A stretch of DNA of 64,000 nucleotides from Candidatus Thorarchaeota archaeon (GCA_048882045.1 JBHLRZ010000011.1:26778-90777), one strand, 5' to 3'; numbered from the stretch's first letter, positions 22,242-54,675 are shown. The notes: generated by a model from the sequence alone, not told the origin. Numbers and translations are program-made.

Positions 22242-22269
22242 AGACTTATCTTGGAGTTGTGTTCTAGAA
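22242..22269 (+). repeat. Repeated upstream module; identical 28-mer at 23590-23617, degenerate copies at 21536 and 22887
   Basis: AGACTTATCTTGGAGTTGTGTTCTAGAA. Confidence 0.85.
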
Positions 22270-22283
22270 GGCAATAAGGGTGT

Positions 22284-22865
22284 TTGAACGTGAGGCGTGC
22301 GATTCAGCTTATTGGCATCCTATTCGCTGTAGTAGTCTTGGTACTCACTTTCTCTCAAAACCTCGGGGAAATCCAATACCTGTTAGCATTTCTAGTATCA
22401 CTTGCAATCATAGTAATTTCATACGTAATTTCTAGGAGTGCAAGCGATAAGGAATCGCCCAAGTATTCCAAAAGGCAAATTGACCGTATGCTCCGCGCTG
22501 AGGAGAAACGCGTAGCAGAGAAAAAACCTTGGAGAACTCCCTTACGAGAATATGAGCTAGGTCCTCTTTCTAGGGAAATTGATCGGATAGAACTCGAAAC
22601 AGTGATACAGAATCCATCTATGGCAGAGGCCTATTCATTCAGAAATAGACTTGAAACGATGATACTATCAGTCGCGAGAAGGAGTATCGACGCGGGAACC
22701 GAGATATCGATGAATGAACTCTGTCAGTTGACTGGACTTGACTTTAAGACGACGAAACAGATGCTGGATTATGTTGGCCGTAGGAGAGGATTCTCCCATA
22801 AATCACGGAAGGTTGGTCCTGACCCAAGACAGGCAATGATTCAATTCTACTCAACCAGAAAGTAG
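22284..22865 (+). CDS. Hypothetical membrane protein (2 N-terminal TM helices, possible C-terminal HTH)
   Basis: Hydrophobic N-terminus; ISMNELCQLTGLDFKTTKQML. Confidence 0.6.
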   Translation: MNVRRAIQLIGILFAVVVLVLTFSQNLGEIQYLLAFLVSLAIIVISYVISRSASDKESPKYSKRQIDRMLRAEEKRVAEKKPWRTPLREYELGPLSREIDRIELETVIQNPSMAEAYSFRNRLETMILSVARRSIDAGTEISMNELCQLTGLDFKTTKQMLDYVGRRRGFSHKSRKVGPDPRQAMIQFYSTRK

Positions 22866-22998
22866 CTTTGGTTAGAACGAATCAAAACTTATGTTGAAAT
22901 TGTATTCTAAAAGGGGGGTCAAAGAGAATGGGATGCGAGTACTGTGAATCAGTGGGAAATGTGTTTCCTAGGTTATAATGATTCGGAGATGAGCCTTA

Positions 22999-23514
22999 AT
23001 GAACAATGATTGGAAGGAGAGTGTCAGAAGCCAAATTAACATGGAACTTGCAGAGATTGTGTTTCAAACTGTGCTACCAAATATAGAGATTTTACTTGAC
23101 AAAGTTCGGGATAGAAAGGACCCCGAAAAAGCATGTAGACTGGCTGATGAAATTGTTGCATCAGTTTATGATCATATTGTCAGACATCCTAGTATAGGAC
23201 AGGATTTTGCATTGAAACCTAGGAAAGTGGAATACCGTCACTTCTTGACAGTGATGATGATGACTCATCTCGATCCTGAAGACACACGCCGCCTTCCATC
23301 GATGGTGTACAAGGATACTGGGGAGGTCCCTTGGTTTGTTATTATTAGAGTTGGATTATGCTCTTTGATGATACTCTTGCATCAAGTTGTCTTTGGCTTC
23401 TTCGAGCAAGTATGGAGCAAGTCTTCATTTGCCACAATAGCAGATTGTAGCAAATCCGATGCCACTTCAGAAATGTTGACAAGATTCAACTTGGAGCTGG
23501 AAACTTGGCTGTAA
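22999..23514 (+). CDS. Hypothetical protein
   Basis: 171-aa ATG ORF, no recognised motif. Confidence 0.55.
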   Translation: MNNDWKESVRSQINMELAEIVFQTVLPNIEILLDKVRDRKDPEKACRLADEIVASVYDHIVRHPSIGQDFALKPRKVEYRHFLTVMMMTHLDPEDTRRLPSMVYKDTGEVPWFVIIRVGLCSLMILLHQVVFGFFEQVWSKSSFATIADCSKSDATSEMLTRFNLELETWL

Positions 23515-23639
23515 GTTAGTGTTGGTCCAAAACAAACTTGCTTTGAACCTCTCTCATCACATCCAGTTTCTTCAATACGGTCTCCAATCAGACTTATCTT
23601 GGAGTTGTGTTCTAGAAAGGGAGTCATGGAGAATGGGGC

Positions 23640-25361
23640 ATGAGTGTCAAGCTGGCCTACACCACTATCAATGGAAACATGGAAGAAGTTGAATTTGAGA
23701 AGGACAAGAAGACAGTTTCACTCGAGTTTAGAGATATTGTGAATGTTGACCTGACTCCACTCAAGTCCTATCCATCATTACAATCACTCGCTCTGAGTGA
23801 CAATCATCTCCAATCTATTGACCTTTCACCCCTAGCATCTATCAAAGACCTTCTACATCTCTATATATCCAGAAATCCACTAGAAAGTATTGACCTGTCA
23901 CCACTGAGTTCTTGTAGTAACTTCACATTACTCTATCTTTCAGAAAACATCCTCAAATCAGTTGATTTGTCACCACTTTCCTCCTGTTTGAAACTCGAAG
24001 ATTTGCGTCTTGAAGGAAATGGACTCCAGACTATCGATCTCGAGCCCCTCCGGTCATGTGAGTCTCTTAGATACCTCTACCTACAAGATAACAGACTTCA
24101 TGAGATTGACCTATCACCACTCAGCTCAACTAATCTAAGAAGCCTTATTCTTCGAAACAACTTGCTTGAGAGCATTGACCTGTCACCACTCAGATCCACT
24201 CCTCTCAAGTTCGGTGATCTCGTTCTGGCCCAAAATAAGCTGAAGAGTGTCAATCTGTCTGGATTTGGCTCTACTGGGTTAGAACGAGTTTTTCTGGCTC
24301 AAAATGAGCTGGAATCCATAGACCTTCTACCCCTCAGATCATGTGTGAAGCTCAGAAGAGTCACTCTTAAAGGGAACAAACTAGAGTCCGTCGATATCAC
24401 ACCTTTCTATCGATTCAAACATGCACTAGTGGAACATGATTATCATTGCATAGACTATTCATGGGTTAGACATCCAAGGAATCGTGGAACCTATAGAAGA
24501 CCTGAAAGGATGTACCCTTGGTCGTTCCTATATGAAGTGGTCAAAGATTTCCCGAATGACTATCAGGTTCAACACGACATCCTTCTGGCTCTTGAACTCG
24601 AGGATTATGGCTTCGTTGATTCCAATCTCACAGACAAGTTTCTCGCCATACCACCTGAAACAAGAACTGAAGATGTTCAAAAGTTACTCATTGAGATACT
24701 CGTAGAAGAGATAGTTGATTCTGTGGATAGAGGAGGACCAACGACAGGTCTCAATCTTGAACGACTCACGAGTAAACATTCTGAGATTGCTTTAAGGGTT
24801 CAGAGAATCGCTGAACTCAGAGCCTTGGAAATGGAAAAGCTGGTTGTGACAGTGAATGAAGACCATCTTCCGATTTTTACTGGACCAGTTGATCTACGTT
24901 ACTTCTGCTTGACGGCTTACGGATATGAGATTCTCAGAACTTTGAAAAAGACTCAAAACTATGGCACATCCTCTCTGGATGTAGAGATGGAGATATTGAG
25001 TCCCATAAAGAGAGCTCTCAAAGAAATCGGATTCACACTGAAGACTGGAGAAGGAAAATCTGGAGTGGAAATGAGTGGCAAACTCCGTAAGTGCATCTGG
25101 TGGATCAAGAAAAATGATGGTTCGAACTGGTATTCTAGAGACCTTGAACCAATAGACCGTCCTGTAACTGAATTGATAGTCCGTACAATAAGTAATCTGC
25201 TTGACGAAAGTCATAGAACAGTTGATTGGGATGAACTCACACAAGTCTTGCTAGGAAAGGGTGTTTCAAAGGATAGGGTTGATGAAACGGTTGCGATGCT
25301 AATCGCGAAGAGATACTTAGACAGAGTTTTTAACAAACTCCGTGTGACGGACAGCTTCTAG
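23640..25361 (+). CDS. Leucine-rich repeat protein with C-terminal wHTH-like tail
   Basis: About 10 LxLxxNxLxxIDLSPL repeats. Confidence 0.88.
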   Translation: MSVKLAYTTINGNMEEVEFEKDKKTVSLEFRDIVNVDLTPLKSYPSLQSLALSDNHLQSIDLSPLASIKDLLHLYISRNPLESIDLSPLSSCSNFTLLYLSENILKSVDLSPLSSCLKLEDLRLEGNGLQTIDLEPLRSCESLRYLYLQDNRLHEIDLSPLSSTNLRSLILRNNLLESIDLSPLRSTPLKFGDLVLAQNKLKSVNLSGFGSTGLERVFLAQNELESIDLLPLRSCVKLRRVTLKGNKLESVDITPFYRFKHALVEHDYHCIDYSWVRHPRNRGTYRRPERMYPWSFLYEVVKDFPNDYQVQHDILLALELEDYGFVDSNLTDKFLAIPPETRTEDVQKLLIEILVEEIVDSVDRGGPTTGLNLERLTSKHSEIALRVQRIAELRALEMEKLVVTVNEDHLPIFTGPVDLRYFCLTAYGYEILRTLKKTQNYGTSSLDVEMEILSPIKRALKEIGFTLKTGEGKSGVEMSGKLRKCIWWIKKNDGSNWYSRDLEPIDRPVTELIVRTISNLLDESHRTVDWDELTQVLLGKGVSKDRVDETVAMLIAKRYLDRVFNKLRVTDSF

Positions 25362-25376
25362 TTCAAGAAGACAAAT

Positions 25377-25490
25377 TGGCGCTGGGGGCGAGATTCGAAC
25401 TCGCGAGTGCATAGCACACTGGATGTTTGCAGAATGCTGGATCAGCTATCATTAGCAATCCAGCGCCCTACCAGGCTAGGCTACCCCAGC
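25377..25490 (-). tRNA. tRNA-Ser(GCT) with canonical 37/38 intron (25425-25452)
   Basis: Full cloverleaf with long V arm, BHB helix TTGC/GCAA, G73, encoded CCA. Confidence 0.92.
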
Positions 25491-25635
25491 TTGAGCAATC
25501 GGTTCGGAATCCCAATTCTCTCATAAACATTGTGACCGAACCTCATCTATTTGTGAAAACACATAAATCACGACCCTCGTAGAGATGCCTTGTTCAGCGG
25601 AAATTGATGTAGAGAGTGAAGCTTTATGCATACTT

Positions 25636-25716
25636 GCCGGGGTGGCTGAACGGTTAAAGCGCCTACCTGAAAAGTAGGTTTCTACGGATATGTGGGTTCG
25701 AATCCCACCCCCGCAA
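25636..25716 (+). tRNA. Aberrant type II tRNA (Leu/Ser-like body, GAA anticodon), possible pseudogene
   Basis: D, anticodon (CCTAC-CTGAAAA-GTAGG) and T arms intact; V arm with cUACGg; acceptor needs a bulge; no CCA. Confidence 0.6.
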
Positions 25717-25746
25717 GATGTTTCAGCACAACTTCTTCTCATTGTT

Positions 25747-27219
25747 CTACTTCAAGGAGAACCGACGCTGACTTACCTTCTTCCCATTCTCACGCACGAA
25801 CTTCTCCAATTCATTTTTTGAAACCTGATATATGCCATCGCCGAGCTCAAATTGGACGAGATCATGGCTATTGCTAATTGCCGAGGAATAATCAGGAACC
25901 TCAACAGATTCGGTTTCAGAAACCCATTCCATTATTTGAGGCTTTGATACCTCGATATAGGATGATTTGACAATGTCTGATTCGCTTTCCATGGCTATTA
26001 TTCCCGCCAATTCGAGAAGCTGAAGAAGAATGTTCAATCTCTTAGTGTTCTTCCCAGAACCTGGAAGATATCCAGACTTCTTACCGAGTGTTTCCTGTAA
26101 TGATTCACGAGTATATTCATCTCTCATCTGGAACAAAAGATGAATGTGGGAACCAAACCAAGTTCTGAGTAGATGAACTCTTAGTGTTTCTTTGGCATCA
26201 AGAGGGACTCCCCAATCCATGCTGGTGACAAAGCTGACTAGAGGAGGGCTTGGTTGCCATCCATCTTGATTTTCAGAGAGTAAATTGATCGACTCCCAAA
26301 ATGACAGACATGTTCTGACATTCTTTTGCGAAACACCCACAACAGATGAAACATCTGAAAGCATGACTGGTGTTCTATCCCGTTCGTACATCGCTGTGAT
26401 TACCTTCAAGGTTTCAATTTGCTTATCTAGAACTAAATTGTGACAGGGAATAGTTTCTCTTGCCGGAGTGTCACTGTAATCTCTGGATACTCTAACAGCT
26501 TTCAGTGATGCATCAAAACTAGAATCTAATGTTTCTTGAACGGGATCTTTTGGTGCTTCTAGTGAAGAATCTGTATGTCTGGCAGAGTCGTCCTTTAATT
26601 CCAACTGACTAAGTAATTTCTCATTCTGTGAGATATCAGAAGTCAGGTTGTAGATGTCACTTGGAGGGTCGAAACTCCCACCTTCCATTCCGAGACTTTT
26701 CAAGATTGGGTTCACATTGATCACGAGGATGCGACCATCTTCTTCCTTTCTGATAACACCAGAAAGAAGACCAGACTCTAGAAATGTCCGTTCAAATTGC
26801 CGGGCAACCTTATCGGTGACTCCATACTGTTGACCTATGAGGTTTCTAAGATAGAGAGGATTCTTGATTCTGGATCCTTTAAATCTTGTATACATTTCTC
26901 TGAACTTCTCCGGATTCAGGAAAGTCAGGATTCTGACTATTCTCTGTTGGGACTCTGACAAGGGCATTCGGAGAGAACGTCCTAATGGAGTCATTTCATA
27001 GTTGCCATTGTTTTGCTTGATGAGACCATACATTCCCATTGCACCTACTGCACTACCAGCACTCATACTATGAGGTGTTGTATATCCCATAATTGTTGTA
27101 AGACTGACTCGATCAACCTGTGATGCAGGTGAAAGGTCAGTAAGCCACTCTTCACATTTCGCGATTGTGTATCGGGGAAATGTGATTGTTTTAGCGCGTT
27201 TCTTAACCACGATATTCAC
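25747..27219 (-). CDS. Hypothetical protein with two predicted winged-helix regions
   Basis: AMGMYGLI..NNGNYEMTPLG and LSDVSSVVGVSQKNVRTCLSFWESINLL patterns. Confidence 0.55.
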   Translation of the reverse strand: MNIVVKKRAKTITFPRYTIAKCEEWLTDLSPASQVDRVSLTTIMGYTTPHSMSAGSAVGAMGMYGLIKQNNGNYEMTPLGRSLRMPLSESQQRIVRILTFLNPEKFREMYTRFKGSRIKNPLYLRNLIGQQYGVTDKVARQFERTFLESGLLSGVIRKEEDGRILVINVNPILKSLGMEGGSFDPPSDIYNLTSDISQNEKLLSQLELKDDSARHTDSSLEAPKDPVQETLDSSFDASLKAVRVSRDYSDTPARETIPCHNLVLDKQIETLKVITAMYERDRTPVMLSDVSSVVGVSQKNVRTCLSFWESINLLSENQDGWQPSPPLVSFVTSMDWGVPLDAKETLRVHLLRTWFGSHIHLLFQMRDEYTRESLQETLGKKSGYLPGSGKNTKRLNILLQLLELAGIIAMESESDIVKSSYIEVSKPQIMEWVSETESVEVPDYSSAISNSHDLVQFELGDGIYQVSKNELEKFVRENGKKVSQRRFSLK

Positions 27220-27308
27220 GTTCCTGCTTGCTAAAATAGCTAGCGTTCGTTACATATGGCTTAAAGTACTAGCGTACGTATTTAAAGGTACCGCTCAATA
27301 TCAACGAG

Positions 27309-27386
27309 TACTGATAGCTAATCCAGCCGTCAGCAAACATCTAGTGTGCTCTGCACTCGAGAGTTCAAATCTCTCCCTGAGCGCCA
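27309..27386 (+). pseudogene. 3' fragment of split tRNA-Ser(GCT), intron retained
   Basis: Intron homologous to 25425-25452, then ATCTAG, V arm GTGC-TCT-GCAC, GAGAG-TTCAAAT-CTCTC, CCTGAGC-G-CCA. Confidence 0.85.
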
Positions 27387-43600: not shown

Positions 43601-44032
43601 GATGAGCTCTTCATCTGATAGTCCGTGGAGGTGACACTTCTCACTTCGAAGCATGATAGGCAGGTCACCTATGTAAATCCTCATAGTTTCCAACCGCGTT
43701 GACACTGATCCCTCCTTGCGGACAGGGGTCATATCAAGGTGTATCTTGCTTGCATATGTGAGGTTTCTAATTCTGGCTTCATTTGGGTAGAGCTTGTGCT
43801 CGCTGCCGTCAGCTTCTCGAATAGAAGGCTCATCAATATGGATGTCACCGAGTTCCACCACATAACCTTCTATTTTTGGAGTGAGCTTGCCAACACTGTC
43901 TACTACATACTGGAGCTCTTCTCTGATAAACCGGTTAAACGAGTCAAGATGCTGACCTACTAATCCATACTGATCGAAGAATGACTCTATCACTGGCCAG
44001 TACTTTTCCCGTTCGTTTGTGCCCTTTGTCAT
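40661..44032 (-). CDS. rpoB: RNA polymerase subunit B (Rpo2, unsplit)
   Basis: GDKYASRHGQKG, GLRFGEMERD, ETPEG. Confidence 0.98.
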   Translation of the reverse strand: MTKGTNEREKYWPVIESFFDQYGLVGQHLDSFNRFIREELQYVVDSVGKLTPKIEGYVVELGDIHIDEPSIREADGSEHKLYPNEARIRNLTYASKIHLDMTPVRKEGSVSTRLETMRIYIGDLPIMLRSEKCHLHGLSDEELIQHGEDPKDPGGYFIINGSERVLVTQEDLAPNRILIEEASKSSSYTHIAKVFSTSRGFRAPVTIERKRTGELRVSFPSVPGKIPLAILLKALGLESDREIVDVISDDDEIRNELIVTIEQSAPINAARDEEEGSTRTNALDFIGKRVAVGQTKEYRLARAEKVLDRYLLPHIGTEDDSRLQKAYYLGQMVERLLELVLNKRAADDKDHYANKRLKLSGDLLMSLFRVALYSLTRDIKYQLERTAVRGRKPNIRTAVRADVITQRLKHALATGNWVGGKAGVSQLLDRTNYISSLSHLRRVVSPLSRSQPHFEARDLHSTHWGKICPNETPEGPNCGLVKNIAMMAYISVGAEEDSVERALLKAEVEPIEKLQGKRGTKWADVFLNGRLVGVHPAPQVLVKTIRQKRRAGEIDHQTNIAYYEDTHEVQVNCDAGRVRRPVIIVENGKSRLTDEHLRMIQDNEWGFLDLLRNGTVEFIDAEEEENTLIAMYPNEIGPNNTHMEIVPSTILGISAALIPFPERNQSPRNVYMAGMAKQSVGVPASNFRYRADTRSHFFHYPQIPLVKTRAMDSIGYEDRPAGQNFIVAILSFEGYNIEDALIMNKASIERGLGRSTFARVYESEERKYPGGQEDRFEIPDRSVRGYRASESYRNLGEDGIIETEVEVMGGDVLIGRTSPPRFLEEYSEFEIASPNRRETSVAVRHGEAGVVDSVILTETIDGNRLVKVKVRDLRIPELGDKYASRHGQKGVIGYIVPQQDLPFTEDGVVPDLLINPHAIPSRMTIGQILEMVAGKAACMVGKQQDATPFCGVSEDELFDILKKHGLKHNGRETMYSGITGEKLKVDIFMGVIFYQKLHHMVADKIHARARGPVQILTRQPTEGRAREGGLRFGEMERDVLIGHGAAILLKGRLLDESDKSNMLVCEECGLIGVYDRNKDQYYCPICGTNAKISSVVVSYAFKLLIQEMMSLGLATRLRLKEMI

Positions 44033-44183
44033 GTAATCACATCGTGAATGTGAAGGACGGGGGAACTACTGCTATGCACACGCTTCCCAACGCATGGATT
44101 ACCCAGAAAATCCGAGCTCACCAACTGCCTGCAATAGCCGCCCCGTTTGCATTACTCCTACAGACTCACTCCCACTCATGCAA

Positions 44184-44291
44184 TGGCGGGCTCGGCGGGA
44201 TTTGAACCCGCGGCCAATCCCCATATGGGAGATCACTCTCACATATTTCAGGTTAAAAGCCTGCTGCGCTACCTAGCTGCGCCACGAGCCC
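44184..44291 (-). tRNA. tRNA-Lys(TTT) with non-canonical intron near 43/44 (about 44217-44247)
   Basis: GCAGG-CTTTTAA-CCTG anticodon arm, hairpin insert before the variable loop, T arm, encoded CCA. Confidence 0.88.
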
Positions 44292-44610
44292 TTGAGTCAG
44301 GTTTTAACCACCTTGGCCCCATCATCTATGACATCATCGCGCATTACAACATGTCAAGTGGATGCAATTTACGACCATGCATGAGAGGGAAGCAGTTCTG
44401 TCTGAGCAAAGGACGGGGAATTCTGTATCAATAAAAGGGTTGCGATAAAACGCAGAAATGGAGTAACATCTAAGGACGGTTTGGCTTTTGTGAGCCACTT
44501 TTCTATAGGCCTCAATCAGTAATAAATCTACTCTGTAATCGACCCGTGCTGTCTATTCCAGCTCAAATCGTATCCTAGATGTTATGCCCTGACCTGTTTC
44601 TAATTCAAAG

Positions 44611-44800
44611 ATGCAAGCCCCTGTAGTGTATGACCTGCTTCTGAGATTGTGAGTGAACCACAACTGTAAGAAACCTCTGTGTTTCGCCCCTCTCTTGCCA
44701 GTGTCACCACCATCCAGCATTTTCATGAAAATGCTAAACTTAGCAAGAGCATTGTCAACGTTCATTGGGATGGGATCCCTCCTGAAGACCTGGCATCTTT
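44611..44800 (-). ncRNA. Putative TnpB omega-RNA (scaffold plus guide); 5' limit uncertain
   Basis: Dense hairpins downstream of tnpB (20-nt palindrome 44716-44735, CTCTTGC/GCAAGAG, GAAAC/GTTTC, TTGTG/CACAA), ending ...GGTCA then the anti-tRNA-Asp sequence. Confidence 0.55.
44617..44630 (+). pseudogene. 5' 14 nt of tRNA-Asp (split exon and/or TnpB guide)
   Basis: GCCCCTGTAGTGTA, identical to the first 14 nt of the tRNA-Asp at 51900-51887. Confidence 0.75.
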
Positions 44801-46438
44801 CTCCTGTCTTGATGTCGGGGCATCACTCCCAACTACAGAGAGAGTTTCCACAGTATTTTCCACGGCGGGGTCATTATCACCCTTCCCAGATTCATCGCTG
44901 AAGCTGAAAAGACTCGTCTGAGTATGGTGAACAGCCGCGGACTCTCCAAGACCCGATGTTTGATCTTTAGAGGAGAGTAAGGACTTCCCTTGAGAAGACT
45001 TCTTCTTTCGGGCTTTCAGTCGTGCACGTTGAGTCTTATCTAAGACCCTAGTCCACATACCTAGTCCTCTCACAGAGTGCAGTGACTTTGTGAGCTTGAG
45101 CATACGTGCTGCGATGTTGATACTACCGTTCCTGTCAGCATTGGTCTTGTGTCCGCAGGATGGACAGTGGAAGTAGTTCTGCTTGGGTCTCCTACCCTTA
45201 CTTCCACACTTCCAGCACATGATGGAAGTCCAAGCCTCAGGAACGGCTTGGAACCTCGCATCCTTGCCATCGACTTTCCAACCAAGCTGAGCAAGTCCAT
45301 GTTCCAGACTTTCAGTTATCCGGGCAAAGGCCCATGAATTTATCATAGCCCTAAACTTGCGACCTCGGTAGTTTCCTCTTCTGGCACGCATTCGTATATT
45401 CTTTAGACGACCGATGGCTACATAGAGTGTGTATTTCTCAGAGAGTATAGAGATGCAATCAAGAAGTTGTCGAACGAGAACCCTGTCATACTCTTTCGAC
45501 ACATTTTCTCTTTTATTCTTCATCTGACGGAGCCTTTCTGCAATCTTATCGTGTGTCTGTCCGTTCTCTCTCCTGAGATGTAACTCTCTCTGAAGGTTGG
45601 CAACAAGTCGGTCATATTTCTTTATGACTTTGACCTTCTCTTTTTGGATGAAGTATCTTGTTTCCCTCGTCTTCTCTGGAGTTAGGAGAGTTGAACATGC
45701 GGCCTTCTCGATGCCGAGGTCGATTCCAAGTATCGCTACAGGAAGTCCACTCATGTGTAAGTCATCAATCGCAACCCTGACAGCTATTGTCACCCACCAC
45801 TTTCTGAATCGATCAGTGAAGATCTGTACAGCCTTTACATCTCCACGGCGAAGTTGATTCAGGTGAAAGGATGAAACCTTCAAAGGAATGACTAATCTAT
45901 CATGAAATGTACGCCCAGCCTGTACGGAGTCAAGAGAATCCCTTATGTCTAGCCACCAGCGAGCTGAAGATGTACGTTTTTCAACAAGTCTGAATCGTTG
46001 AGCAAAGACCCATCTGGGAATACGTCGACTTCTATTGATTGATGCAGGGCGAGAAGCTCTCAATCCATTCTTCATTCTGAGCTTAAGATAACTCTCATAC
46101 AAAGAAACTGCAATCTGTCTGCACTCGGTCATCTCGTTTTGAGATATTCGAGGGAACCTTGCCTTGAAGTCATGAGGTACGGTTAGTCTCCGACTATAGC
46201 CCGCCTTGACTTGGTGTGCAGTCATAGTGAGCTTATCCAGCTCACCATCATCAATCCGATTTTTCTTACGACCTGTCAACAACTTGTCTTCATGTTGTTC
46301 AATAATTCCAAGGAATGCACGAATCACTCTAGTGTCTCGCCCAATGGTCTGCCTAAGCCTCTGCTTAGTCCTCTCGGTCATGGCTTCCCAGTTGATTGGG
46401 ACCTTCACCGAGATTGTCACACCCTTGGACCGAGCCAT
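44762..46438 (-). CDS. tnpB: TnpB/Cas12f-like RNA-guided nuclease with rearranged RuvC site
   Basis: GIDLG (D240), AIGRL (G343 at RuvC-II), VPEAWTS (E401), CWKC/CPSC Zn ribbon, NADRN (D435). Confidence 0.88.
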   Translation of the reverse strand: MARSKGVTISVKVPINWEAMTERTKQRLRQTIGRDTRVIRAFLGIIEQHEDKLLTGRKKNRIDDGELDKLTMTAHQVKAGYSRRLTVPHDFKARFPRISQNEMTECRQIAVSLYESYLKLRMKNGLRASRPASINRSRRIPRWVFAQRFRLVEKRTSSARWWLDIRDSLDSVQAGRTFHDRLVIPLKVSSFHLNQLRRGDVKAVQIFTDRFRKWWVTIAVRVAIDDLHMSGLPVAILGIDLGIEKAACSTLLTPEKTRETRYFIQKEKVKVIKKYDRLVANLQRELHLRRENGQTHDKIAERLRQMKNKRENVSKEYDRVLVRQLLDCISILSEKYTLYVAIGRLKNIRMRARRGNYRGRKFRAMINSWAFARITESLEHGLAQLGWKVDGKDARFQAVPEAWTSIMCWKCGSKGRRPKQNYFHCPSCGHKTNADRNGSINIAARMLKLTKSLHSVRGLGMWTRVLDKTQRARLKARKKKSSQGKSLLSSKDQTSGLGESAAVHHTQTSLFSFSDESGKGDNDPAVENTVETLSVVGSDAPTSRQEKDARSSGGIPSQ

Positions 46439-46685
46439 CGCTTTGTCTTTCCTTATTAAGTTCTGACCTGTTTCAGGCCAGTTGAGTTCACTCCAATCTT
46501 TGTCTGAAATTGGAGTAATTAACTCATAGATTTATCATACAAGTTTCCTTATTAAGTTATTATGAAAATTTATTATAAACTCTTTAATAAAGAAAATAAG
46601 AACTGATAAGTCTATTTTTATAAATTTTAGACTTCTGAATAAGTATGAAATACTTATAAATAAAATCGAGAGGAGAATAACTGGA

Positions 46686-49600
46686 GTGTCCTGTTTGGGG
46701 CGAAGAACTCAGGAATTCAGACCGAATGCAGTTCTAGCTACTGCACTTTATTCAGGATTATCAGCTCTAGTCTGGTTGGCAAATAGACGAAAGAATAGAC
46801 AGACAGAAGAAATCTTTGAGAAAATTAGAAACAAATGGAAATCTATCCAAGTGAATAAGAAAATGGATGGATCAAGCCGCCCGCATGATTTCTCTAAAGT
46901 TCAGAAGATAGAATCCCCCCTCAGAAAGCTGAATCTACGTATGCTCTGGCTTAGCACGAAACGATACGGCAACAAAGAGAGGAAGCGAGTATACAGCTGG
47001 AAAGAGGGCACCATTGGAGAACTCAATAGTCTACTGAACTATGCTGGAGCAACACTACGAGATATCGTTGTTCCACGTTATCCATTCCCAACCCCACAGC
47101 TCTACGAAATCCGAAAATATCCAGATGGAACAAAGCAAGTCATTCCAAAAGATGTGGCGGACAAGGTCCCAGCAGCACTTGGGGTGAAGACTCACTTGAA
47201 AGCGGGATATCGAGGAAACTCTAAAAATCCCAGAGTGTTATTGACACATCCAACATTACCAGCCATGGACTTTGGAGATATGCTACGAGCTCATCTCATT
47301 GAACTCTGTCGACAATGCTTCATTCATTGTGTACCTCGAACTGAGTCACATCGATACATTAGACTGCTGATTCATAGACTGACCCCATTTCTCGATTGGG
47401 TGTACACACGAGGAAAGACAGGTCGCAAGGATTTCTCCCCTTGCGCAGACAGAGAATTGAGAAAGATTGTACTTGAAATCAGGAACAACTACAGCAGACA
47501 CATTAGGACTAGAGAGAGAATCAGTAAACCAGTCGAAGATGTTCCTCAAGACTTTGGAATAGATGCTCTCAAAGAACAGGTTGAAGCAATACAAGAAACA
47601 TCAGAAGACAGAAACACCAAGAAAAAGTGTAAGACAATTCTTCAGCACATTGAGAAAAGAATCGTCACACACAGAGAAGTGGAAAAGTTCCTTGAAAACA
47701 TCATGAGTAGCGTACAACTAGAAGGGAGCAACTGGCACAGAGTGCTGCTCTCTGGATATCCTCAACCTCGCTCACTCAAAGAGGCCATCTTTGCCGGAGA
47801 CTATCTCCTTCAGAATCCTTCCGGGTTTCAGTATTTTGCTGAAGTTCCGGTCACTGGAATCCAAGGATCAGGAAAGATTGACCTTGTCCTTTTCGTTCGC
47901 ATTCGTTGGCGTGACAGCCATATCTGGGCTCCCATCATGATTCTCGAGTTGAAGACCAAGGCTGGATTCGACTTCAACCTGTTTGGTAAACGTCCCCGTA
48001 CGAAGAAACCCAATGTATTCACACCAGTCTTGAACGCTTGGAAAGAACTTCTCAAGACATCTGAATGGGGTGAAACACTTGGTTCAAAGCCCCCAACAAT
48101 CCATCTTGACCAGATAGATGCATATGAGAATGCTCTGTTATCAGAGTATCATTCAATCATCGGTGAAACTATTGCTTTTAAGCAACTCTGGAAAGGAGTG
48201 GTCACACTTGATGTTTCTCAGGAGTATGAAGACACAAAGCAAATGTTCGATCACATCATCTCCGATTTGGCTAATCGAATAATGAAAGGAGAATTCAATG
48301 GGCGGTGGAAGACACTCAAATTCAAGGACAAGCCTACGGAGCAGATAGCTCCTCGAGTAGCCATTACAATGACTCCAGCTCAGGGTCCTGTGGATGTACT
48401 AAAACGTGTCAGTCCCCTCGAAAATGTTCTATTCGAAGACCCCTTTGCTGATAGAGTGGAGGATGACACCTTCTTCACCCAGTACATTTCACTATCATCT
48501 CCAACATCATCCGGCAAGAGTGCAGCATGGTTTGCCAAGAACTGGCATCTCTTGAACCACCTTGCAGAGCTGGAACGGGCTTTGGACACAGAAACTTCTC
48601 TGACTTGGATTGATCTAATTGGTGATTTTCCAACAAAGAAACTGATAGAGAAGCGATTTGGACTTGATAATCTAAAGAAGAACAAGCTGATTACGAATTC
48701 AGAATATGCAAAACTGAGAAGTCTGTTAGAACGAGTCACCTTTGTCAGTCTTAGAGAGGATATTGATAGATTTCTCATCGACGGGAAACAATCAGGAATC
48801 GAGAGGGCGAGGTCTGCAATCACAGCAGCTCTCGAATCTGAGTCAGAGAATCAAATTACAGTTGTAGATGGCTGGTCGGACTTGGAGAACATGACTCCTG
48901 CGACTCATAGGAACAATCTACAGGTGCTTGAACTCTCACTGCTTCAGATTGTCAAGGATCTCATGAACGAGGTAATCTGGACCGATACAGGAGTTGACCT
49001 TCCACAGGTTTCCGAACTCTATCAACGGAACAGCCCAAGTCCATTCTACTACACATCTCCTAGGAAACAGGTCATTGACGAGGTTCTATGGAATGTGCCC
49101 ACAGCTCCTCAAAAGATGGGGTGGCAGACCCCGGAGTATGAGGACAGTCGAGTAATCATCCAGGACCTACCAACAGAACAAGATCCATGGTCCACGGTCA
49201 TCCATGTACCGCATCTCAAGGGTCTGGGTCGTAAGTTCAGCAAGGCTTCCGTTAGAAGTCCTATTGTCAAGATTGAGAGGCAAACTGGTGACCTGAATCA
49301 ACATGAAAATATGCATGGAAGGTCCTTTCGAAGTTCATCCATCCAGGTGCGTTCTGACACTATTGACATGACCTCCTTGGAAGAAATCACAAAGCATGCA
49401 TTTATCCTGATTCCAAGTCTTCTGAGACCTAGAGATGGACAACCACTGAGTCAGGTCAATGAACATAGTGTTGATTGGTCAACGACCTATCACAATGTCA
49501 ATGTAAACAGTGTTCATCCAAGTCTATCAAGCAGACTGCATCTTGACGTGGACAGAGAGCCACCACATCCAAATCGAATAGGAATTGGTCATGAGGGAAT

Positions 49601-51776
49601 CTACGTTGAGGCAAGGTCCATCACACGTGGGTGGATTCACAAGGAAACTGATGAAGAGGAAGAAGAATCGGTAACGATCACCCGAAGACCAGCTTTTACT
49701 TATTCATCTGAATCAACTCATATCGATACGATTGATACCAGACGAAGAGAAGTCCTACGGTTGTCATACGCTGCTGAGTTCCTCAGTAAGAGACCAACTT
49801 CCTACCGCTCTCTCTACAGAAAGATCGTTTCACTCTGTACCTATGACAACAACGAAACTACTGAGGAGAATCTACTGGGAATACTCACTCAAGTCAGAGA
49901 GGTCATTCTTCACCGAACTGAGACTCAGCGTCTCTGGACACTTCTCCTCAATGACAGGTTGAATCTTGGAAACCTACTGAACTCTGTTAACCTGAAGACA
50001 CTGCAACAAGCATTGGGTCATAATCCTGAACTCATGGATCTCTATGGGATGAATCTCTTTCTTGGAGTGCTTGATGTAGCAACTAGGGTCCTGAGAGATG
50101 CAGAGTCCCCTCATTGTAACGATCTATGGTCATCAGTTGCACGATGGCAGCTCTATCAGATTGGTTTTAGGCAGCAGGATGAGGGAGAATTCGAACACCG
50201 GTATGACTTTCAAGCAATCCACTCAAATCTCACATGGAGGGCGAAACAGATGAAGAAGACAACTTCGCGGATAACCACAAGATTTCCTGAGCAACACGGA
50301 CTATTGCTCTTTCAAGAGAAGAGTGATGGTGGCAGTATCTGGCTACTGTTTCCCTCAATCAAGAAGACTATATTTGGTGCGCTGTTGGAGGAGCAGATGA
50401 GTGCCATTCTTCGCTATGGGTGGCACAGAGGTGAGATAGATCCTCAAAAACTCTCGAAGAGTGCAAAAAGTGCCCTGTCAAGAGACGGGTGGATGGAATA
50501 TCCCATTGTTCTTGTTTCTGTGAACAAACAACACGTGCTCTACACAAAGGACGAGGAAGAATGGGTTCAGTCTGGTCTGTTGGAGTATGGAAATCCTCCA
50601 AAGGAGCAGAGTCAACCTGCACGTTGGATCAGACTGTCGCAACCGTCACCCGAAACTCTTGCAGTCTTGTATGGGTACAGGCCAGGTTCCTTTAACACTG
50701 AGGTCGAAATAGAGTGTGACGAAGTGTTAAAGGAGGCTGCTGAGTGGAGTGGTGTAGTAAGGGAGGTTTCGTGTTTTCTCACCATTGACCCTGAGAAGAA
50801 GGTTTACAGGATTGACCTGAATGAAGGCTCAAAGACCATAGCAAAGAAGGAAACTCAGTATACTGATGAAGCGATTAGATTCCTCAGATACCCCCAGAGA
50901 ATTGGAGAATACTTTTCGACTGCAGACGGTACATACCTCAAGTGGGATGCTCGGAAAGACATCGAGTATGATGAAGTGAAACTCAAGAACAGAGATGGGA
51001 AGTATGACTTCTATCACTTGTCAGTGTTCAAGCCACTCATCCACAGATACTCGTTCTTTTCAGACAGCTACAAGTTACCTTCGACCTGTGAGGACTTCTT
51101 GATGACCAAGGCTGGTGAGGACATAACTCTGAGAATAGTAGTGGATGAACAACGAAAGGACCGAGGTTACAAGAAGTATCTCAAGGTCCGGCTAGATGGA
51201 CTACAGGGAAGAGGACATCTGATTGGTCTTGAGATGGAGGACATGGGGATATTCGATGTGGCACTATTGGCAGAATCCGGACAACTTGTGGACTCGGATT
51301 CTGGGAAGAGGTGCGATGTCACGATTAATTCAAAGGCTCTTGTTAGTCTTAGAGTGGTTCATCTCCTCTCTGATTATCCACGAACTCAAAACTCAATAAT
51401 TGGGGATATAGAGGAACTTGAATCAGCTGAATTGGAAGAGTCAAAATTGACTGATGACGAACTGTTCGAAATCGATGATTCAACACCAGAACTTAGGTTT
51501 GTCAGAGTCCATGTGGAGGAATCTTTACGACAGAGATCTTTGGATGCGATTGCACATCTGTGCAATGTAGATGACGAAACTGACTTTGAGGAGGTGGTAG
51601 TAGTATCAGTATCATCTGAGATTGCAAAGAACCAATCGGTATCTTTTGACTTCATCGAGCATGAAGTCAAGCTCAATCTGAGAGGTCGTAGAGTAAGCAA
51701 TGTCACAATAGAATCCATCTTGAAAGAGGTAGAAGATGCGTTTGAAAACAAGGGAGTAGCAATTGATTATTACTAG
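46686..51776 (+). CDS. Giant uncharacterised protein with PD-(D/E)XK nuclease and P-loop-like regions
   Basis: E386..IDL(D399)..ELK(421-423), QIDAY; SPTSSGKS near 605; VVDG near 726. Confidence 0.7.
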   Translation: MSCLGRRTQEFRPNAVLATALYSGLSALVWLANRRKNRQTEEIFEKIRNKWKSIQVNKKMDGSSRPHDFSKVQKIESPLRKLNLRMLWLSTKRYGNKERKRVYSWKEGTIGELNSLLNYAGATLRDIVVPRYPFPTPQLYEIRKYPDGTKQVIPKDVADKVPAALGVKTHLKAGYRGNSKNPRVLLTHPTLPAMDFGDMLRAHLIELCRQCFIHCVPRTESHRYIRLLIHRLTPFLDWVYTRGKTGRKDFSPCADRELRKIVLEIRNNYSRHIRTRERISKPVEDVPQDFGIDALKEQVEAIQETSEDRNTKKKCKTILQHIEKRIVTHREVEKFLENIMSSVQLEGSNWHRVLLSGYPQPRSLKEAIFAGDYLLQNPSGFQYFAEVPVTGIQGSGKIDLVLFVRIRWRDSHIWAPIMILELKTKAGFDFNLFGKRPRTKKPNVFTPVLNAWKELLKTSEWGETLGSKPPTIHLDQIDAYENALLSEYHSIIGETIAFKQLWKGVVTLDVSQEYEDTKQMFDHIISDLANRIMKGEFNGRWKTLKFKDKPTEQIAPRVAITMTPAQGPVDVLKRVSPLENVLFEDPFADRVEDDTFFTQYISLSSPTSSGKSAAWFAKNWHLLNHLAELERALDTETSLTWIDLIGDFPTKKLIEKRFGLDNLKKNKLITNSEYAKLRSLLERVTFVSLREDIDRFLIDGKQSGIERARSAITAALESESENQITVVDGWSDLENMTPATHRNNLQVLELSLLQIVKDLMNEVIWTDTGVDLPQVSELYQRNSPSPFYYTSPRKQVIDEVLWNVPTAPQKMGWQTPEYEDSRVIIQDLPTEQDPWSTVIHVPHLKGLGRKFSKASVRSPIVKIERQTGDLNQHENMHGRSFRSSSIQVRSDTIDMTSLEEITKHAFILIPSLLRPRDGQPLSQVNEHSVDWSTTYHNVNVNSVHPSLSSRLHLDVDREPPHPNRIGIGHEGIYVEARSITRGWIHKETDEEEEESVTITRRPAFTYSSESTHIDTIDTRRREVLRLSYAAEFLSKRPTSYRSLYRKIVSLCTYDNNETTEENLLGILTQVREVILHRTETQRLWTLLLNDRLNLGNLLNSVNLKTLQQALGHNPELMDLYGMNLFLGVLDVATRVLRDAESPHCNDLWSSVARWQLYQIGFRQQDEGEFEHRYDFQAIHSNLTWRAKQMKKTTSRITTRFPEQHGLLLFQEKSDGGSIWLLFPSIKKTIFGALLEEQMSAILRYGWHRGEIDPQKLSKSAKSALSRDGWMEYPIVLVSVNKQHVLYTKDEEEWVQSGLLEYGNPPKEQSQPARWIRLSQPSPETLAVLYGYRPGSFNTEVEIECDEVLKEAAEWSGVVREVSCFLTIDPEKKVYRIDLNEGSKTIAKKETQYTDEAIRFLRYPQRIGEYFSTADGTYLKWDARKDIEYDEVKLKNRDGKYDFYHLSVFKPLIHRYSFFSDSYKLPSTCEDFLMTKAGEDITLRIVVDEQRKDRGYKKYLKVRLDGLQGRGHLIGLEMEDMGIFDVALLAESGQLVDSDSGKRCDVTINSKALVSLRVVHLLSDYPRTQNSIIGDIEELESAELEESKLTDDELFEIDDSTPELRFVRVHVEESLRQRSLDAIAHLCNVDDETDFEEVVVVSVSSEIAKNQSVSFDFIEHEVKLNLRGRRVSNVTIESILKEVEDAFENKGVAIDYY

Positions 51777-51792
51777 TTCATGAGTCAAAAAG

Positions 51793-51900
51793 TGGCGCCC
51801 CCGCCGGGATTCGAACCCGGGTCTCAAGAGTGACAGTCTTGAATGCTAATCCGGATACTGTAAAACATCTACAGTATTGACCGTACTACACTACAGGGGC
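51793..51900 (-). tRNA. tRNA-Asp(GTC), intact, with D-loop intron (51849-51878)
   Basis: CAAGA-CTGTCAC-TCTTG, CCGGG-TTCGAAT-CCCGG, G73, CCA; 30-nt hairpin insert in the D loop. Confidence 0.92.
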
Positions 51901-51995
51901 TGCGGTTCGGTTGGAGCAAAGTCGATTTTCTATTAAACTCATCGGTCGAGAACATATAACTACGGACGAGTTCTATTAGATATTGAGGAGTTATT

Positions 51996-52628
51996 GTGAA
52001 AGATGATGATTCACCTGATAATTGGATTCAGGTTAGATTATTCTACAATGCCTTTGAAAATGAGAAGATAAGAAAGCTAGATCAACGGGTTTTAGAAGTA
52101 GGTTCAGATCTAGAGAATGAAGAGCTTGCAGAAAGTTGGCACATTAGATTCTCCGGACCTTACATCTCATTACGTGTCAAAACTAAACCTAGAAATCGAG
52201 CAGAGGTTGAAAGCCGAATTGAAGCATTGAAAAAAGAATTGACTAACGAGAATCTAATCAGAGATTCTAAGATTGATTTGAAAGAATTTCTCCAAAGTAA
52301 TGAAGTCCCTTCCGATCTCGAATCATGGAAAGAATGGAACATCTTGATGGAGATTCTCAACTTATGTAGTCGAATCGTCAGGATGGTACATAAACTGGAG
52401 AAACACGAACGTAGATTGTATATGACACATAACAAAGTAATCCATCACTTCTATAACATGGCACATATTCAGGACACATTCATTCCCTTTCTAATGAAGT
52501 ATCCATATGACAGTATCATTGGCTTTCTGGAGGAGGGGGAGGGAGAGAAACTCACGAGGATTGTAAAAGACTTAGGTGCAGAAGAGAAACAATGGTATAT
52601 GAAATTACATTTTGGTCAGATGATTTAA
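51996..52628 (+). CDS. Hypothetical protein, weak resemblance to lantibiotic dehydratase C-terminal domain
   Basis: WIQVRLFY...WHIRFSGPYISLRV...IHHFYN. Confidence 0.45.
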   Translation: MKDDDSPDNWIQVRLFYNAFENEKIRKLDQRVLEVGSDLENEELAESWHIRFSGPYISLRVKTKPRNRAEVESRIEALKKELTNENLIRDSKIDLKEFLQSNEVPSDLESWKEWNILMEILNLCSRIVRMVHKLEKHERRLYMTHNKVIHHFYNMAHIQDTFIPFLMKYPYDSIIGFLEEGEGEKLTRIVKDLGAEEKQWYMKLHFGQMI

Positions 52629-52692
52629 TCATTCGCAAAATAAGGGGTGCTATGGAATCCAGAATCCATGGTTATTCGAAAAAGTAAGGATT

Positions 52693-52847
52693 TGACGGTC
52701 TAGCATTCAAGACTGTCAATCCAAAGTGGTTGGCACCTTGGAACGGATCTCTTGAGACTCTCTCATTCGTGAGAGAGCCAGAGAAAGACCCGGGTTCAAG
52801 AGGAATCATGAATTCCATGGTTTTTGGAAATCCCGGCGGGGGCGCCA
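52693..52847 (+). tRNA. 3' part of split tRNA-Asp(GTC) with three BHB introns (52719-52748, 52755-52785, 52801-52830)
   Basis: Removing the three inserts gives GACGGTCTAGCATTCAAGACTGTCACTCTTGAGACCCGGGTTCAAGTCCCGGCGGGGGCGCCA. Confidence 0.85.
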
Positions 52848-52958
52848 CTCTCTATTTTCCACTATTCTTCATTATTAAAATTCTGAGTTCCAAAAGGACC
52901 ATTAGGAAGGAGACCGTTTGTTTCGACCAAGTTTTGATTAATTGTGGAAAGGGTAGAG

Positions 52959-53780
52959 ATGAAAGAAAAAACAGGCTATTTACACGAAGGTACAGAAGAA
53001 GAAGTAGCGCGTCTTGAATTTCAGGCTGACGAGGATGAAGAACACCTTAGTGCTGAATTCGATATATTGCAAATTAACTCAGGGATGAAAGTTCTTGATG
53101 CTGGTTGTGGAACAGGTGCGGTTACAAGGCGAATTGCCAGAAGAGTCGCACCTTCTAAAGTAGTTGGGGTTGATCTTGATGAATTCTTCATTGAAAAGGC
53201 TAAGGAATTTGCAGCCAAAAAAGAGATCGAGAACATTCAGTTTGAGGTAGGTGATGTTGCAAATCTTCGATTCTCTGATTCCGTGTTTGATTTATCCTAC
53301 AGTAGACTTGTCTTGATGCATGTTCAAGATCCTGTCAAGGTTGTTTCCGAACTTCGACGTGTGACAAAAAGTGGAGGAATTGTAGGTGTGTCAGATACCG
53401 ATGATGATGCAATGCTAATCTATCCATCAATTCCGATTTCCACAGAGCTCAGAAGTAAATCTGTTGAATGGATGAAAACGAAGGGTGTCAATCGGTATAT
53501 AGGAAAAGAGCTATACGACATATTTCGGCTAGCTGGACTGAAATCGATTAGAATTATTCCATTTCCATTCATTATTACAAAAGAAAACCCAGAGGACTTG
53601 GAAGCATATGTTTCGAATCTAAAGCAGAGTTATGAACAGATAAAGGACCTATTAATTGAACAGGGCATTATCACTTCCAAAGAGAGCGATGAGGTCTACA
53701 AGGAGCTGGAAGAGTTTCTCGATCATCCGGGTAGGTTCCTAATGGTATGTATGTTTTTAGGAATTGGAGAAGTGCCATAG
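52959..53780 (+). CDS. Class I SAM-dependent methyltransferase
   Basis: VLDAGCGTG, VGVD, FDLSYSRLVLMH. Confidence 0.9.
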   Translation: MKEKTGYLHEGTEEEVARLEFQADEDEEHLSAEFDILQINSGMKVLDAGCGTGAVTRRIARRVAPSKVVGVDLDEFFIEKAKEFAAKKEIENIQFEVGDVANLRFSDSVFDLSYSRLVLMHVQDPVKVVSELRRVTKSGGIVGVSDTDDDAMLIYPSIPISTELRSKSVEWMKTKGVNRYIGKELYDIFRLAGLKSIRIIPFPFIITKENPEDLEAYVSNLKQSYEQIKDLLIEQGIITSKESDEVYKELEEFLDHPGRFLMVCMFLGIGEVP

Positions 53781-53785
53781 ATTCA

Positions 53786-53808
53786 CAAGTCCCAGCGGGG
53801 GCGCTACT
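53786..53808 (+). repeat. Degenerate intron-less copy of the tRNA-Asp 3' end (att-like)
   Basis: CAAGTCCCAGCGGGGGCGCTACT vs spliced CAAGTCCCGGCGGGGGCGCCACT, 21/23. Confidence 0.75.
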
Positions 53809-53814
53809 ACTTCT

Positions 53815-54675
53815 TTATTCATTCTCAGGTTCCAAACTGTCCCAGAAGCTCTTCGGAGGGTGTCGTAGGTTCCAATCTACCCGGGTGTCATGCAGAACAC
53901 GAGAGCAGTATGAATCTCCTTGTGCGATTGTGTGTTCCATAGTGAGAATTACACTGTCATGGTATACCTTGAAGTTTTCATAATCGCCATAACAACAGAC
54001 ATAATATTTTAGCTCGGTATCGGGCAGTTCATCTCCAATGGCAGTAAGAAAGACACAGTTGTCATTCCGAAAAGCATACTTACCATCCCCAATCATGGTA
54101 TGAACGATTTGCCAATCAGAGGGGGTTTCTTTAGGTTCAGTCCTCCTAGCAAAGAGGTCTTCAAGATTGTCTACTATTTTTCTATTCGGATCTCTGTTCT
54201 CCATTGAATACTGTGTGACGAATCTCTTGTATAATGCAATGGCTTCTTTTCTACCAATAGTTTCAGACAGGACTACCAGGTTGTTGTAGTTGTGGTGTGA
54301 CCAGGACTGGAAATATGCCCTGTTGACGACTTTGGTTTCTCCAAGACGATCCTCAGGCCGAAGTTGGAGAATCTGTACAATGTAGTTCAAAACAAGTCTG
54401 CTGAGTCTGGGATGCTCTTTCAGGTGGGGGGTATTGGATACGATGTCATCAAGGTCTGGGGGATTAGCCTTCGCTTGCTCATCATTCAGTAGATCTTGAT
54501 ATTTGGCGGTGAGATTGACTATATATTTAGGAAAAATCTCTGGAATTCGTTCTTTGACAAATCCAAGGAAATAGTCCATACGCCTGAATCGGTCTTGTAT
54601 TTCCTCAAGCGAATTGATCTCAACGATTCGCTCCATGGTTTCCGGTCTGTAGTTTCCAGTTCTCACAACCTTCAT
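53815..54675 (-). CDS. L-2-amino-thiazoline-4-carboxylate hydrolase-like protein
   Basis: C...CCYGD...HTIAQGDSYC pattern. Confidence 0.6.
   Translation of the reverse strand: MKVVRTGNYRPETMERIVEINSLEEIQDRFRRMDYFLGFVKERIPEIFPKYIVNLTAKYQDLLNDEQAKANPPDLDDIVSNTPHLKEHPRLSRLVLNYIVQILQLRPEDRLGETKVVNRAYFQSWSHHNYNNLVVLSETIGRKEAIALYKRFVTQYSMENRDPNRKIVDNLEDLFARRTEPKETPSDWQIVHTMIGDGKYAFRNDNCVFLTAIGDELPDTELKYYVCCYGDYENFKVYHDSVILTMEHTIAQGDSYCSRVLHDTRVDWNLRHPPKSFWDSLEPENE

Follow-up and report, generated by a model that had tools for sequence, protein, structure and literature searches.

Why does the DNA behind an archaeal tnpB gene end directly against the start of a broken tRNA-Asp gene, and could that start serve as the template of an RNA guide? 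The question is raised by a stretch of 64,000 nt from a Candidatus Thorarchaeota archaeon (GCA_048882045.1, JBHLRZ010000011.1:26778-90777), which is here called the window. The source assembly comprises 3.6 Mb in 93 contigs, and the genome that holds the window is labelled G000. An earlier note, made from the window alone, had predicted an omega-RNA behind tnpB with a guide antisense to the 5' end of tRNA-Asp.

A tRNA-Asp gene split by an element with a spare copy

A tRNA-Asp gene in the window is split by an insertion of 8,064 bp (44631-52694). The 5' stump of this gene (copy B), comprising nt 1-14, is found at 44617-44630 on the plus strand and lacks a tRNA-Asp promoter upstream. The rest of the gene, from the D loop to CCA and with three short introns, lies at 52695-52847 on the same strand. 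The two pieces complement each other and together make one tRNA-Asp. The larger piece opens with TGAC, as does the insertion itself (44631-44634), and these 4 nt are all that the two junctions share. Both junctions are bridged by contigs of independent sequencing runs. In the contigs of four DNA runs, which drop rare forms, no joint removing the insertion was found across 43800-53900.

The insertion carries tnpB, a long partner gene (ORF1696), a spare tRNA-Asp gene, and ORF210. The spare tRNA-Asp(GTC), copy A', occupies 51793-51900 on the minus strand and is served by a TTTAATAGAAAA promoter of its own; its D loop reads GTAC and is interrupted by a single intron of 30 nt (51849-51878). It is the sole intact tRNA-Asp found in the assembly. 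The broken gene is thus tolerated because the only intact tRNA-Asp is carried by the element, and the host has become dependent on that element.

Several other accounts of the split gene were rejected. An integrase-type tRNA island does not fit, as the ORFs of 44631-52694 hold no tyrosine or serine recombinase domain and the junctions share only the four bases in place of att direct repeats of the tRNA. A giant intron or a trans-spliced split tRNA was discarded because a junction mini-construct formed neither a bulge-helix-bulge nor a leader fold, leaving no splice motif across the 8-kb insertion, and the stump has no promoter; the intron of the spare copy, which served as a control, folded as expected. 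By reasoning, a simple inversion between the inverted 15-mers would have left both genes whole and the stump unexplained.

Some smaller features of the insertion were also recorded. Contigs of two runs (X3, X4) join 51872 to 52701 on opposite strands, as would be expected if, in a relative or in some members of the population, the segment between the inverted tRNA-Asp copies were itself inverted. Inside the left junction, 52652-52681 resembles the T-loop intron at 52801-52830 (about 22 of 28 nt by eye; 17 nt aligned at 88%) and may be a further decayed piece of tRNA-Asp. ORF210 (51996-52628) resembles, weakly and below cutoff, the C-terminal domain of thiopeptide/lanthipeptide dehydratases and is missing from the version of the element in genome G046.

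TnpB and the predicted omega-RNA scaffold

The tnpB gene (44762-46438, minus strand) is a 558-aa ORF whose product belongs to the RNA-guided nucleases of the TnpB/Cas12f kind and has its RuvC glutamate rearranged. It matches Pfam PF07282 (TNB, zinc-ribbon) at 5e-13 and scores 84 bits against the NCBIfam guided_TnpB model, under the cutoff of 100. Its best solved relative is TnpB 9nzp_A (6.6e-11 over residues 115-445). The RuvC fold and the zinc-ribbon (TNB) domain by which OMEGA nucleases are recognized are both present. Across the 39 family members compared, D240, E401, and D435 never vary; D240 and D435 line up with known catalytic residues, and the position of the canonical RuvC-II glutamate is held by an invariant G343-R344. 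On the basis of its invariance in these 39 proteins, E401 is a candidate for an alternative catalytic glutamate, a pattern which we take to be that of the rearranged-site TnpB subgroup. These candidate catalytic residues are kept, apparently under purifying selection, and the protein may be active. Relatives of this TnpB occur in 57 of 87 genomes of the same order, often in multiple copies.

Behind the tnpB stop codon, 131 nt (44761 to 44631, minus strand) lead to a terminus reading ...TCAGAAGCAGGTCA, of which GAAGCAGGTCA occupies 44641-44631. When the post-stop DNA of approximately 30 loci (TnpB identity 61-89%) was aligned, a conserved block extended up to GGTCA or GGTTA, and the sequences beyond this GGTYA were unrelated. 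Among the copies within genome G043, homology is likewise lost 137-143 nt past the last aligned codon. The scaffold is kept in some 35 related loci of Thorarchaeota. The consensus fold, drawn from 35 loci, contains 29 predicted pairs, and the conserved structure starts within the 3' end of tnpB. The predicted omega-RNA scaffold hence spans 44631-44794 on the minus strand (the last 30 nt or so of tnpB and the 131 nt past its stop), its 5' limit being approximate. A search of Rfam gave no family matching it.

The earlier note had described this segment as packed with hairpins, and this was borne out: the hairpins are there, and 16 of the 29 pairs show compensatory changes. Its prediction of an omega-RNA behind tnpB finds support in sequence comparison, given a scaffold that ends at 44631 and is conserved and covarying across relatives. 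These patterns support the anatomy of an omega-RNA and suggest that the scaffold is under purifying selection. We infer that it is transcribed, processed, bound by TnpB, and used for cleavage.

The predicted guide template and its match

Since similarity stops exactly after GGTYA, the guide would be templated by the flanking DNA; in line with the guide position of OMEGA systems, the flanks directly after GGTYA and one further base (T or G) are locus-specific across the family. With the scaffold ending at 44631, the guide position corresponds to the antisense of tRNA-Asp nt 1-14. The first base past GGTYA was examined in 42 loci and proved to be T in 23 and G in 14; A and C did not occur. Where the locus's own genome retains an empty site, as in two cases, this base mismatches the target and the flank matches the empty site from base 2 onward. 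The base therefore belongs to the element, and the tRNA-matching core comprises 13 nt. The predicted guide template of the window is T-ACACTACAGGGGC-T (44616-44630, minus strand), in which the first T is probably the element's last base and the 13-nt core is antisense to tRNA-Asp nt 1-13. The earlier claim of a guide antisense to the tRNA-Asp 5' end thus stands as regards the gene start, but the core measures 13 nt (14 with the next T).

Directly past the scaffold end, TACACTACAGGGGC is found at 44617-44630 on the minus strand. This 14-mer occurs twice in the window, the second time at 51887-51900 on the plus strand, against none expected from 100 shuffles. The exact match reported earlier was accurate to the base and can be extended to 15 nt (44616-44630 versus 51887-51901). 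The core ACACTACAGGGGC has only these two sites, in the regions 44617-44630 and 51887-51900, in the whole 3.6-Mb assembly. The stretch of the spare gene that is identical to the guide (51887-51901, plus strand) is preceded by CCGTAC (51881-51886), compared with CCGTCA in the allele rebuilt from 52695-52700. This difference had been read correctly in the earlier note, as had the distance of 8 nt between the match, which starts at 51887, and the D-loop intron.

Empty sites and other carriers

An uninterrupted tRNA-Asp is present at the homologous place in six genomes of the same genus (G036, G047, G049, G050, G032, G054) and in G008. It lies approximately 95 nt past the homolog of window position 44540, beside tRNA-Lys and rpoB. 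Because the gene is intact at the same place in relatives, the empty allele postulated in the earlier note is real in nature, but its sequence in the same genus differs from the one reconstructed: the D loop of the natural allele is GTCC, giving CCGGAC followed by TACAC on the guide's strand, not CCGTC(A). The tRNA-Asp alleles of related genomes (L053-L064) have zero to three introns at the same positions, which indicates that introns are gained or lost quickly.

The scaffold followed by T or G and ACACTACAGGGGC was found in five genomes, four of one genus (G000, G046, G029, G053) and one of another (G055). The bases past the 13-mer core differ in all five (TTGCATC, TCGGGTA, TCGGAGC, TCGGATT, GCGATTA). 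Four of these carriers share the same chromosomal place; in the flank of G053, the rpoB/tRNA-Lys context is not found within 1.5 kb. This conservation of the predicted guide in five genomes suggests that it is used. More broadly, the flanks of the right ends begin inside tRNA sequence in 10 of 39 loci, in nine of them antisense, compared with 3, 1, and 0 in control stretches 120-240 nt further out at the same 39 loci.

An earlier strike at the same locus

The 77 nt upstream of the window's stump lack the promoter CCGACAACTTTAATAGAAAA... that is present in every intact allele (12 compared). With the native promoter missing there, the history of the locus is layered and the exact empty site is gone from the relatives. 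Genome G012 provides one layer. A member of the family there abuts tRNA-Asp nt 27-to-1 with the native promoter beyond it, the remainder of the gene is found at a distance of 11 kb, and the two junctions carry a duplication of 8 nt (TGCTAGAC). In G046 and G029, decayed pieces of scaffold follow the 15-mer, and these are followed by a decayed stump of tRNA-Asp nt 27-to-1. Several end relics accompany this stump past the present right end in G046, and G029 retains a 75-nt scaffold relic at the relative place of the window's 44589-44600 motif. The older stump has accumulated many changes in both genomes while the 13-mer core stayed intact.

In the window itself, the relic GAAACAGGTCAG of an earlier copy's end is found at 44589-44600 on the minus strand, 30 nt past the present right end. 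This sequence, read as ...TTAGAAACAGGTCAG (44600-44589), is all that is left there of the earlier scaffold and stump relics, and the deletion seems to end right at the edge of the 13-mer core. These relics show that an earlier element of the same family struck tRNA-Asp at this locus. A loose-pattern search for more junctions of the nt-27 type returned mostly noise, with G012 and the G046 relic as the only genuine cases.

The simplest account of the locus is a history of three steps. An earlier family member would have inserted at nt 27/28 of the native gene and brought a spare copy; that spare copy would then have been struck at nt 14/15 by the present element, which came with a spare of its own; the last step would have been deletions. 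The 13-mer core may be under selection or may be renewed by repeated entry into tRNA-Asp genes, and either possibility ties the core to tRNA sequence.

Two further sequences near the locus deserve mention. A relic of a native-type tRNA-Asp T loop and acceptor (CAAGTCCC..GCGGGGGCGC; 53786-53808, plus strand), recognized by comparison with native alleles, may mark a separate integrase-type islet. The segments 44461-44480 and 44569-44589 are inverted copies of GGAGTAACATCTAAGGAC, one of them beside the relic end motif, as in G046; genomes with the empty site carry one copy only.

Possible immunity of the spare copy

The earlier note had suggested that differences beside the match could make the element's own tRNA immune to cleavage. 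The spare copies borne by the elements of G000, G046, G055, and G029 all have a GTAC D loop, compared with GTCC in 15 other intact alleles; these four copies share descent, so that the change counts as one observation. Counted on the 5' side, the changed base lies at a distance of four from the 13-mer core and of three from the 14-mer match. One of the four spare copies, that of G029, has no D-loop intron. The intron of the G012 spare copy interrupts that element's protospacer five bases from the TAM side. The short match of 13-15 nt between guide and spare copy may itself be sufficient protection, and the same 13-15 nt may be too short for cleavage of other tRNA-Asp genes.

The targets borne by tRNA genes alone yielded no common TAM motif of 4-5 nt. 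A weak, post hoc signal was seen in five of seven rebuilt targets, where C then T stands before the matched part; native and spare copies both show it.

The partner gene, the left end and mobility

Divergent from tnpB is ORF1696 (46686-51776, plus strand), a Thorarchaeota-specific partner of 1,696 aa with PD-(D/E)XK-like motifs (D396, E418, K420, Q473, Y477) and a RecA/Rad51-like domain. Its homologs adjoin tnpB in the same divergent arrangement in nearly all family loci. There are at least 179 of them, about 1,700 aa long and none annotated, and searches of Pfam, NCBIfam, PADLOC, and the protein atlas gave no family. In a structural model (mean pLDDT 79), one domain weakly resembles Rad51/RadA/DnaB ATPases (E ~1e-4, target TM-score 0.4-0.5). 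The identities of the two proteins are uncoupled, with TnpB pairs at 75% having ORF1696 at 27-59%, which indicates that the two modules shuffle.

The left end of the tnpB module (46448-46558, minus strand) consists of CATAAT, a 15-nt repeat (46558-46544), the conserved 81-nt piece P (46543-46463), a second copy of the 15-nt repeat (46462-46448), and the ATG. Piece P terminates in GAAACAGGTCAG, a motif that all family loci conserve upstream of tnpB as part of their left end. In 31 of 35 loci, the layout is CTTAAT, approximately 12 nt of a sequence X, approximately 15 variable nt, P, X again, and GGCGAAA-ATG; within P, the order is GTACGAG, a hairpin, GAGTGAACTCAACTGACC, and GAAACAGGTCAG. X varies between loci and is constant within a locus; its sequence resembles a TATA-box promoter, and the two copies also have the look of a guide/target pair (scaffold-like end plus X versus TAM-like CTTAAT plus X). 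A 16-nt inverted repeat links the left end (46480-46495, GAGTGAACTCAACTG) with the scaffold (44650-44668, CAGTTGTGGTTCACTC) and covaries within loci, the observed score being reached by none of 2000 permutations. It could represent terminal repeats or tracr-type pairing between RNAs.

The Y1 transposase TnpA (PF01797) is absent from G000 and present in only 4 of the 86 family genomes; it was detected in the control genomes. Nevertheless, the TnpB family reaches at least 16 copies per genome. Without TnpA, the classical peel-and-paste cycle that makes vacant sites is not evident. No left-end sequence is common to the composites of the five genomes compared. The lack of TnpA and of a shared left end, together with the shuffling of modules, argues against plain IS200/IS605 membership. 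Copying of the element through breaks and recombination would fit these points. Identity with aloposons (PMC8813620) was rejected, as these are of a different kind, with tandem proteins of 3,000-6,000 aa and no mention of TnpB.

A second island was observed in the window. At 21498-27386, tRNA-Ser is split in the D loop (between ..CCTGGTA and TGATTCC) by 5.8 kb that encode leucine-rich-repeat proteins and an inverted intact tRNA-Ser, without tnpB.

What the guide may do

We consider it probable, with moderate confidence, that the element makes a flank-templated guide against uninterrupted tRNA-Asp that serves its retention or homing, and that the spare copy makes the host dependent on it. The end of tnpB and the following 131 nt would template a scaffold ending at 44631, and the DNA just outside the element, here the 5' stump of the split tRNA-Asp, would template a guide with the core ACACTACAGGGGC antisense to nt 1-13. 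The TnpB-RNA complex would recognize uninterrupted alleles, matching in full the site that is restored by precise loss of the element; the 13-15 conserved bases might be enough for other tRNA-Asp genes. If such a site were cut, repair would reinstate the element by copying, and both retention and homing would result. The spare copy, which shares just 15 nt with the guide and differs beside the match, might escape.

The guide could instead have no role. Other machinery, such as the nuclease/ATPase encoded by ORF1696 or a lost integrase, might have split the gene, with the tnpB module forming the end of an island and the guide matching tRNA-Asp only because that is where the island sits. Such an origin would be in keeping with the nuclease-like and RecA-like parts of a partner found beside tnpB in nearly all loci, with the lack of TnpA and a conserved left end, and with the second island, which splits tRNA-Ser and has an inverted spare copy but no tnpB; the five 13-mer carriers could stem from one ancestral event. 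However, in both the nt-14 and the nt-27 insertions, the tnpB module itself abuts the stump to the base with its right end, without island DNA in between. The 13-mer remains intact in five genomes, while the older stump and the neighbouring bases have decayed or been deleted up to the edge of the core, and both the catalytic residues and the scaffold appear to be under purifying selection. A roleless guide is therefore, in our view, unlikely. We rate lower again the alternative raised in the earlier note, in which the 13-15-mer is a guide carried by the element that directs insertions to tRNA-Asp, like the tRNA spacers of type V-K CASTs. It could be argued from the core following the scaffold in five genomes with differing bases beyond, the absence of the rpoB/tRNA-Lys context within 1.5 kb in G053, the non-native DNA upstream of the stump, and the recurrence of the family's end motif 30 nt downstream. 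It is not favoured because the 14-mer completes the split gene, stopping exactly where the other gene piece starts, the insertion holds no Tn7-type genes, and the nuclease residues are intact, unlike those of Cas12k. Moreover, the flank is locus-specific across the family, four of the five carriers sit at one chromosomal place, and the downstream end motif is explained as a relic.

Two readings that do without an attack on tRNA-Asp are more remote. The complex might bind the 5' end of the spare tRNA-Asp without cutting and tune its transcription, in the manner of nuclease-derived repressors or short natural guides. The match is indeed short and coincides in position with the spare gene's transcription start, and a second short guide-like/target-like pair of about 12 nt occurs at the left end of the element; but the catalytic residues are invariant and the two candidate targets share no TAM-like context, and we hold such regulation to be very improbable. 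The motif GAA[AG]CAGGTCA at 44641-44631 and 44600-44590, with 30 nt between, could also be taken for a minimal CRISPR-like array, with the scaffold end and GAAACAGGTCAG as repeats around a spacer. We reject this reading as hardly credible. The motif occurs a third time upstream of tnpB, where it belongs to the conserved left end, the corresponding place holds a 75-nt decayed scaffold in G029 and end relics with a decayed tRNA stump in G046, and spacing and content differ between genomes. The appearance of repeat, spacer, and repeat is owed to the relic of the earlier element, not to an array.

The favoured reading, in which the guide is directed against uninterrupted tRNA-Asp, can be carried further. 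The element might be a natural RNA-guided 'cleave and rescue' or homing drive, whose guide cuts tRNA-Asp, whose spare escapes, and which spreads without TnpA; this is possible, if rather doubtful. The spare would escape through the changed base beside the target, the intron, or the short match. Spread would proceed by break-induced copying, perhaps aided by the nuclease/RecA-like partner. Successive elements would overwrite each other's spares, as the nested relics suggest, and this overwriting would generate intron-bearing and fragmented tRNA genes. The left-end pair, CTTAAT plus 12 nt versus GGTCAG plus the same 12 nt, covaries in 31 of 35 loci and might have a role in controlling the element.

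If the guide is active, a TnpB element breaks an essential gene, substitutes its own copy, and aims at the unbroken form. This would bear on the role of TnpB in genomes without TnpA, on why archaeal tRNA genes collect odd introns and fragment, and on how mobile elements persist in Asgard archaea. The spare copies differ from the native alleles exactly beside or inside the targets of the guides. The family also offers compact, apparently TnpA-independent TnpBs with a well-defined scaffold and many natural pairs of guide and target to test.

Comparison with known systems

Type V-K CASTs combine a nuclease-dead Cas12k with TnsB/TnsC/TniQ, hold their spacer inside the transposon, and insert downstream of a tRNA that remains unbroken. 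They reportedly include short tRNA-directed homing spacers, in work credited to Saito et al. in Cell in 2021. The present element resembles them in pairing a short tRNA-complementary guide with a Cas12-lineage protein on a mobile element; it has neither Cas12k nor the Tns proteins, the internal spacer, or the downstream insertion.

The closest likeness in anatomy is to the OMEGA systems of IS200/IS605 elements such as ISDra2, which have a TnpB nuclease with a structured RNA from the 3' end of the gene and the right end of the element (PMC8612924; 10.1101/2023.03.14.532601). Both have a flank-templated guide that spells the uninterrupted site, and both spread in multiple copies. Guide-directed cutting of vacant donor sites is known for TnpB, as set out in three reports (PMC8612924; 10.1101/2023.03.14.532601; 10.1101/2023.11.20.567912). 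The present element differs in that its genome has no TnpA, a partner gene of 1,700 aa is constant, a 16-nt inverted repeat connects left and right ends, the RuvC glutamate is rearranged, and an 8-nt duplication accompanies the insertion in the relative G012. In addition, its cargo includes a spare copy of the very gene that it broke. IStrons are another TnpB element bearing a remedy for the damage of their own insertion, which in their case is self-splicing of the element RNA (10.1101/2023.11.20.567912) and here is a spare gene.

ClvR (PMC6442612) is an engineered selfish element that uses Cas9 and is located away from its target. The two share an RNA-guided nuclease directed against an essential gene, a linked version that differs at or near the target, and the dependence of the carrier. 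The present element, in contrast, is natural and uses TnpB, its cleavage and immunity are predicted, and the likeness is a functional analogy, not one of family. Disruption of tRNA genes by mobile elements has been described in Caldiarchaeum subterraneum, with a comparable tRNA-Thr locus (Sugahara et al. 2012, PMC3293823). As here, that locus shows a 5' fragment of the tRNA, a multicopy insert, and a new intron-bearing copy, and its state varies between related genomes. The Caldiarchaeum element was interpreted as coding for a recombinase of plasmid origin, and a guide RNA was not considered; its fragment and copy are direct repeats, whereas the spare copy is inverted here (PMC3293823). In the literature searched, no natural TnpB element that breaks, replaces, and targets an essential gene was found, the closest being the engineered ClvR. 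A guide from the flank of a split gene is in itself as in known TnpB systems. What is new is the combination of a guide against an essential tRNA, an onboard spare, repeated strikes at one locus, and the lack of TnpA.

Observations at other loci

Two further loci were noted. In genome G030 (L071, contig C22, 10180-10400), an intact antisense tRNA-Gly(TCC) lies between the right end of one member and the P-like left end of the next. On contig C21 of G000 (L002, 49300-49480), a TnpB paralog of 50% identity has the 19-mer ACGACATCTGCTCCAAGCC directly past its scaffold end; the 19-mer recurs 135 nt downstream, with an AT-rich segment between the two copies.
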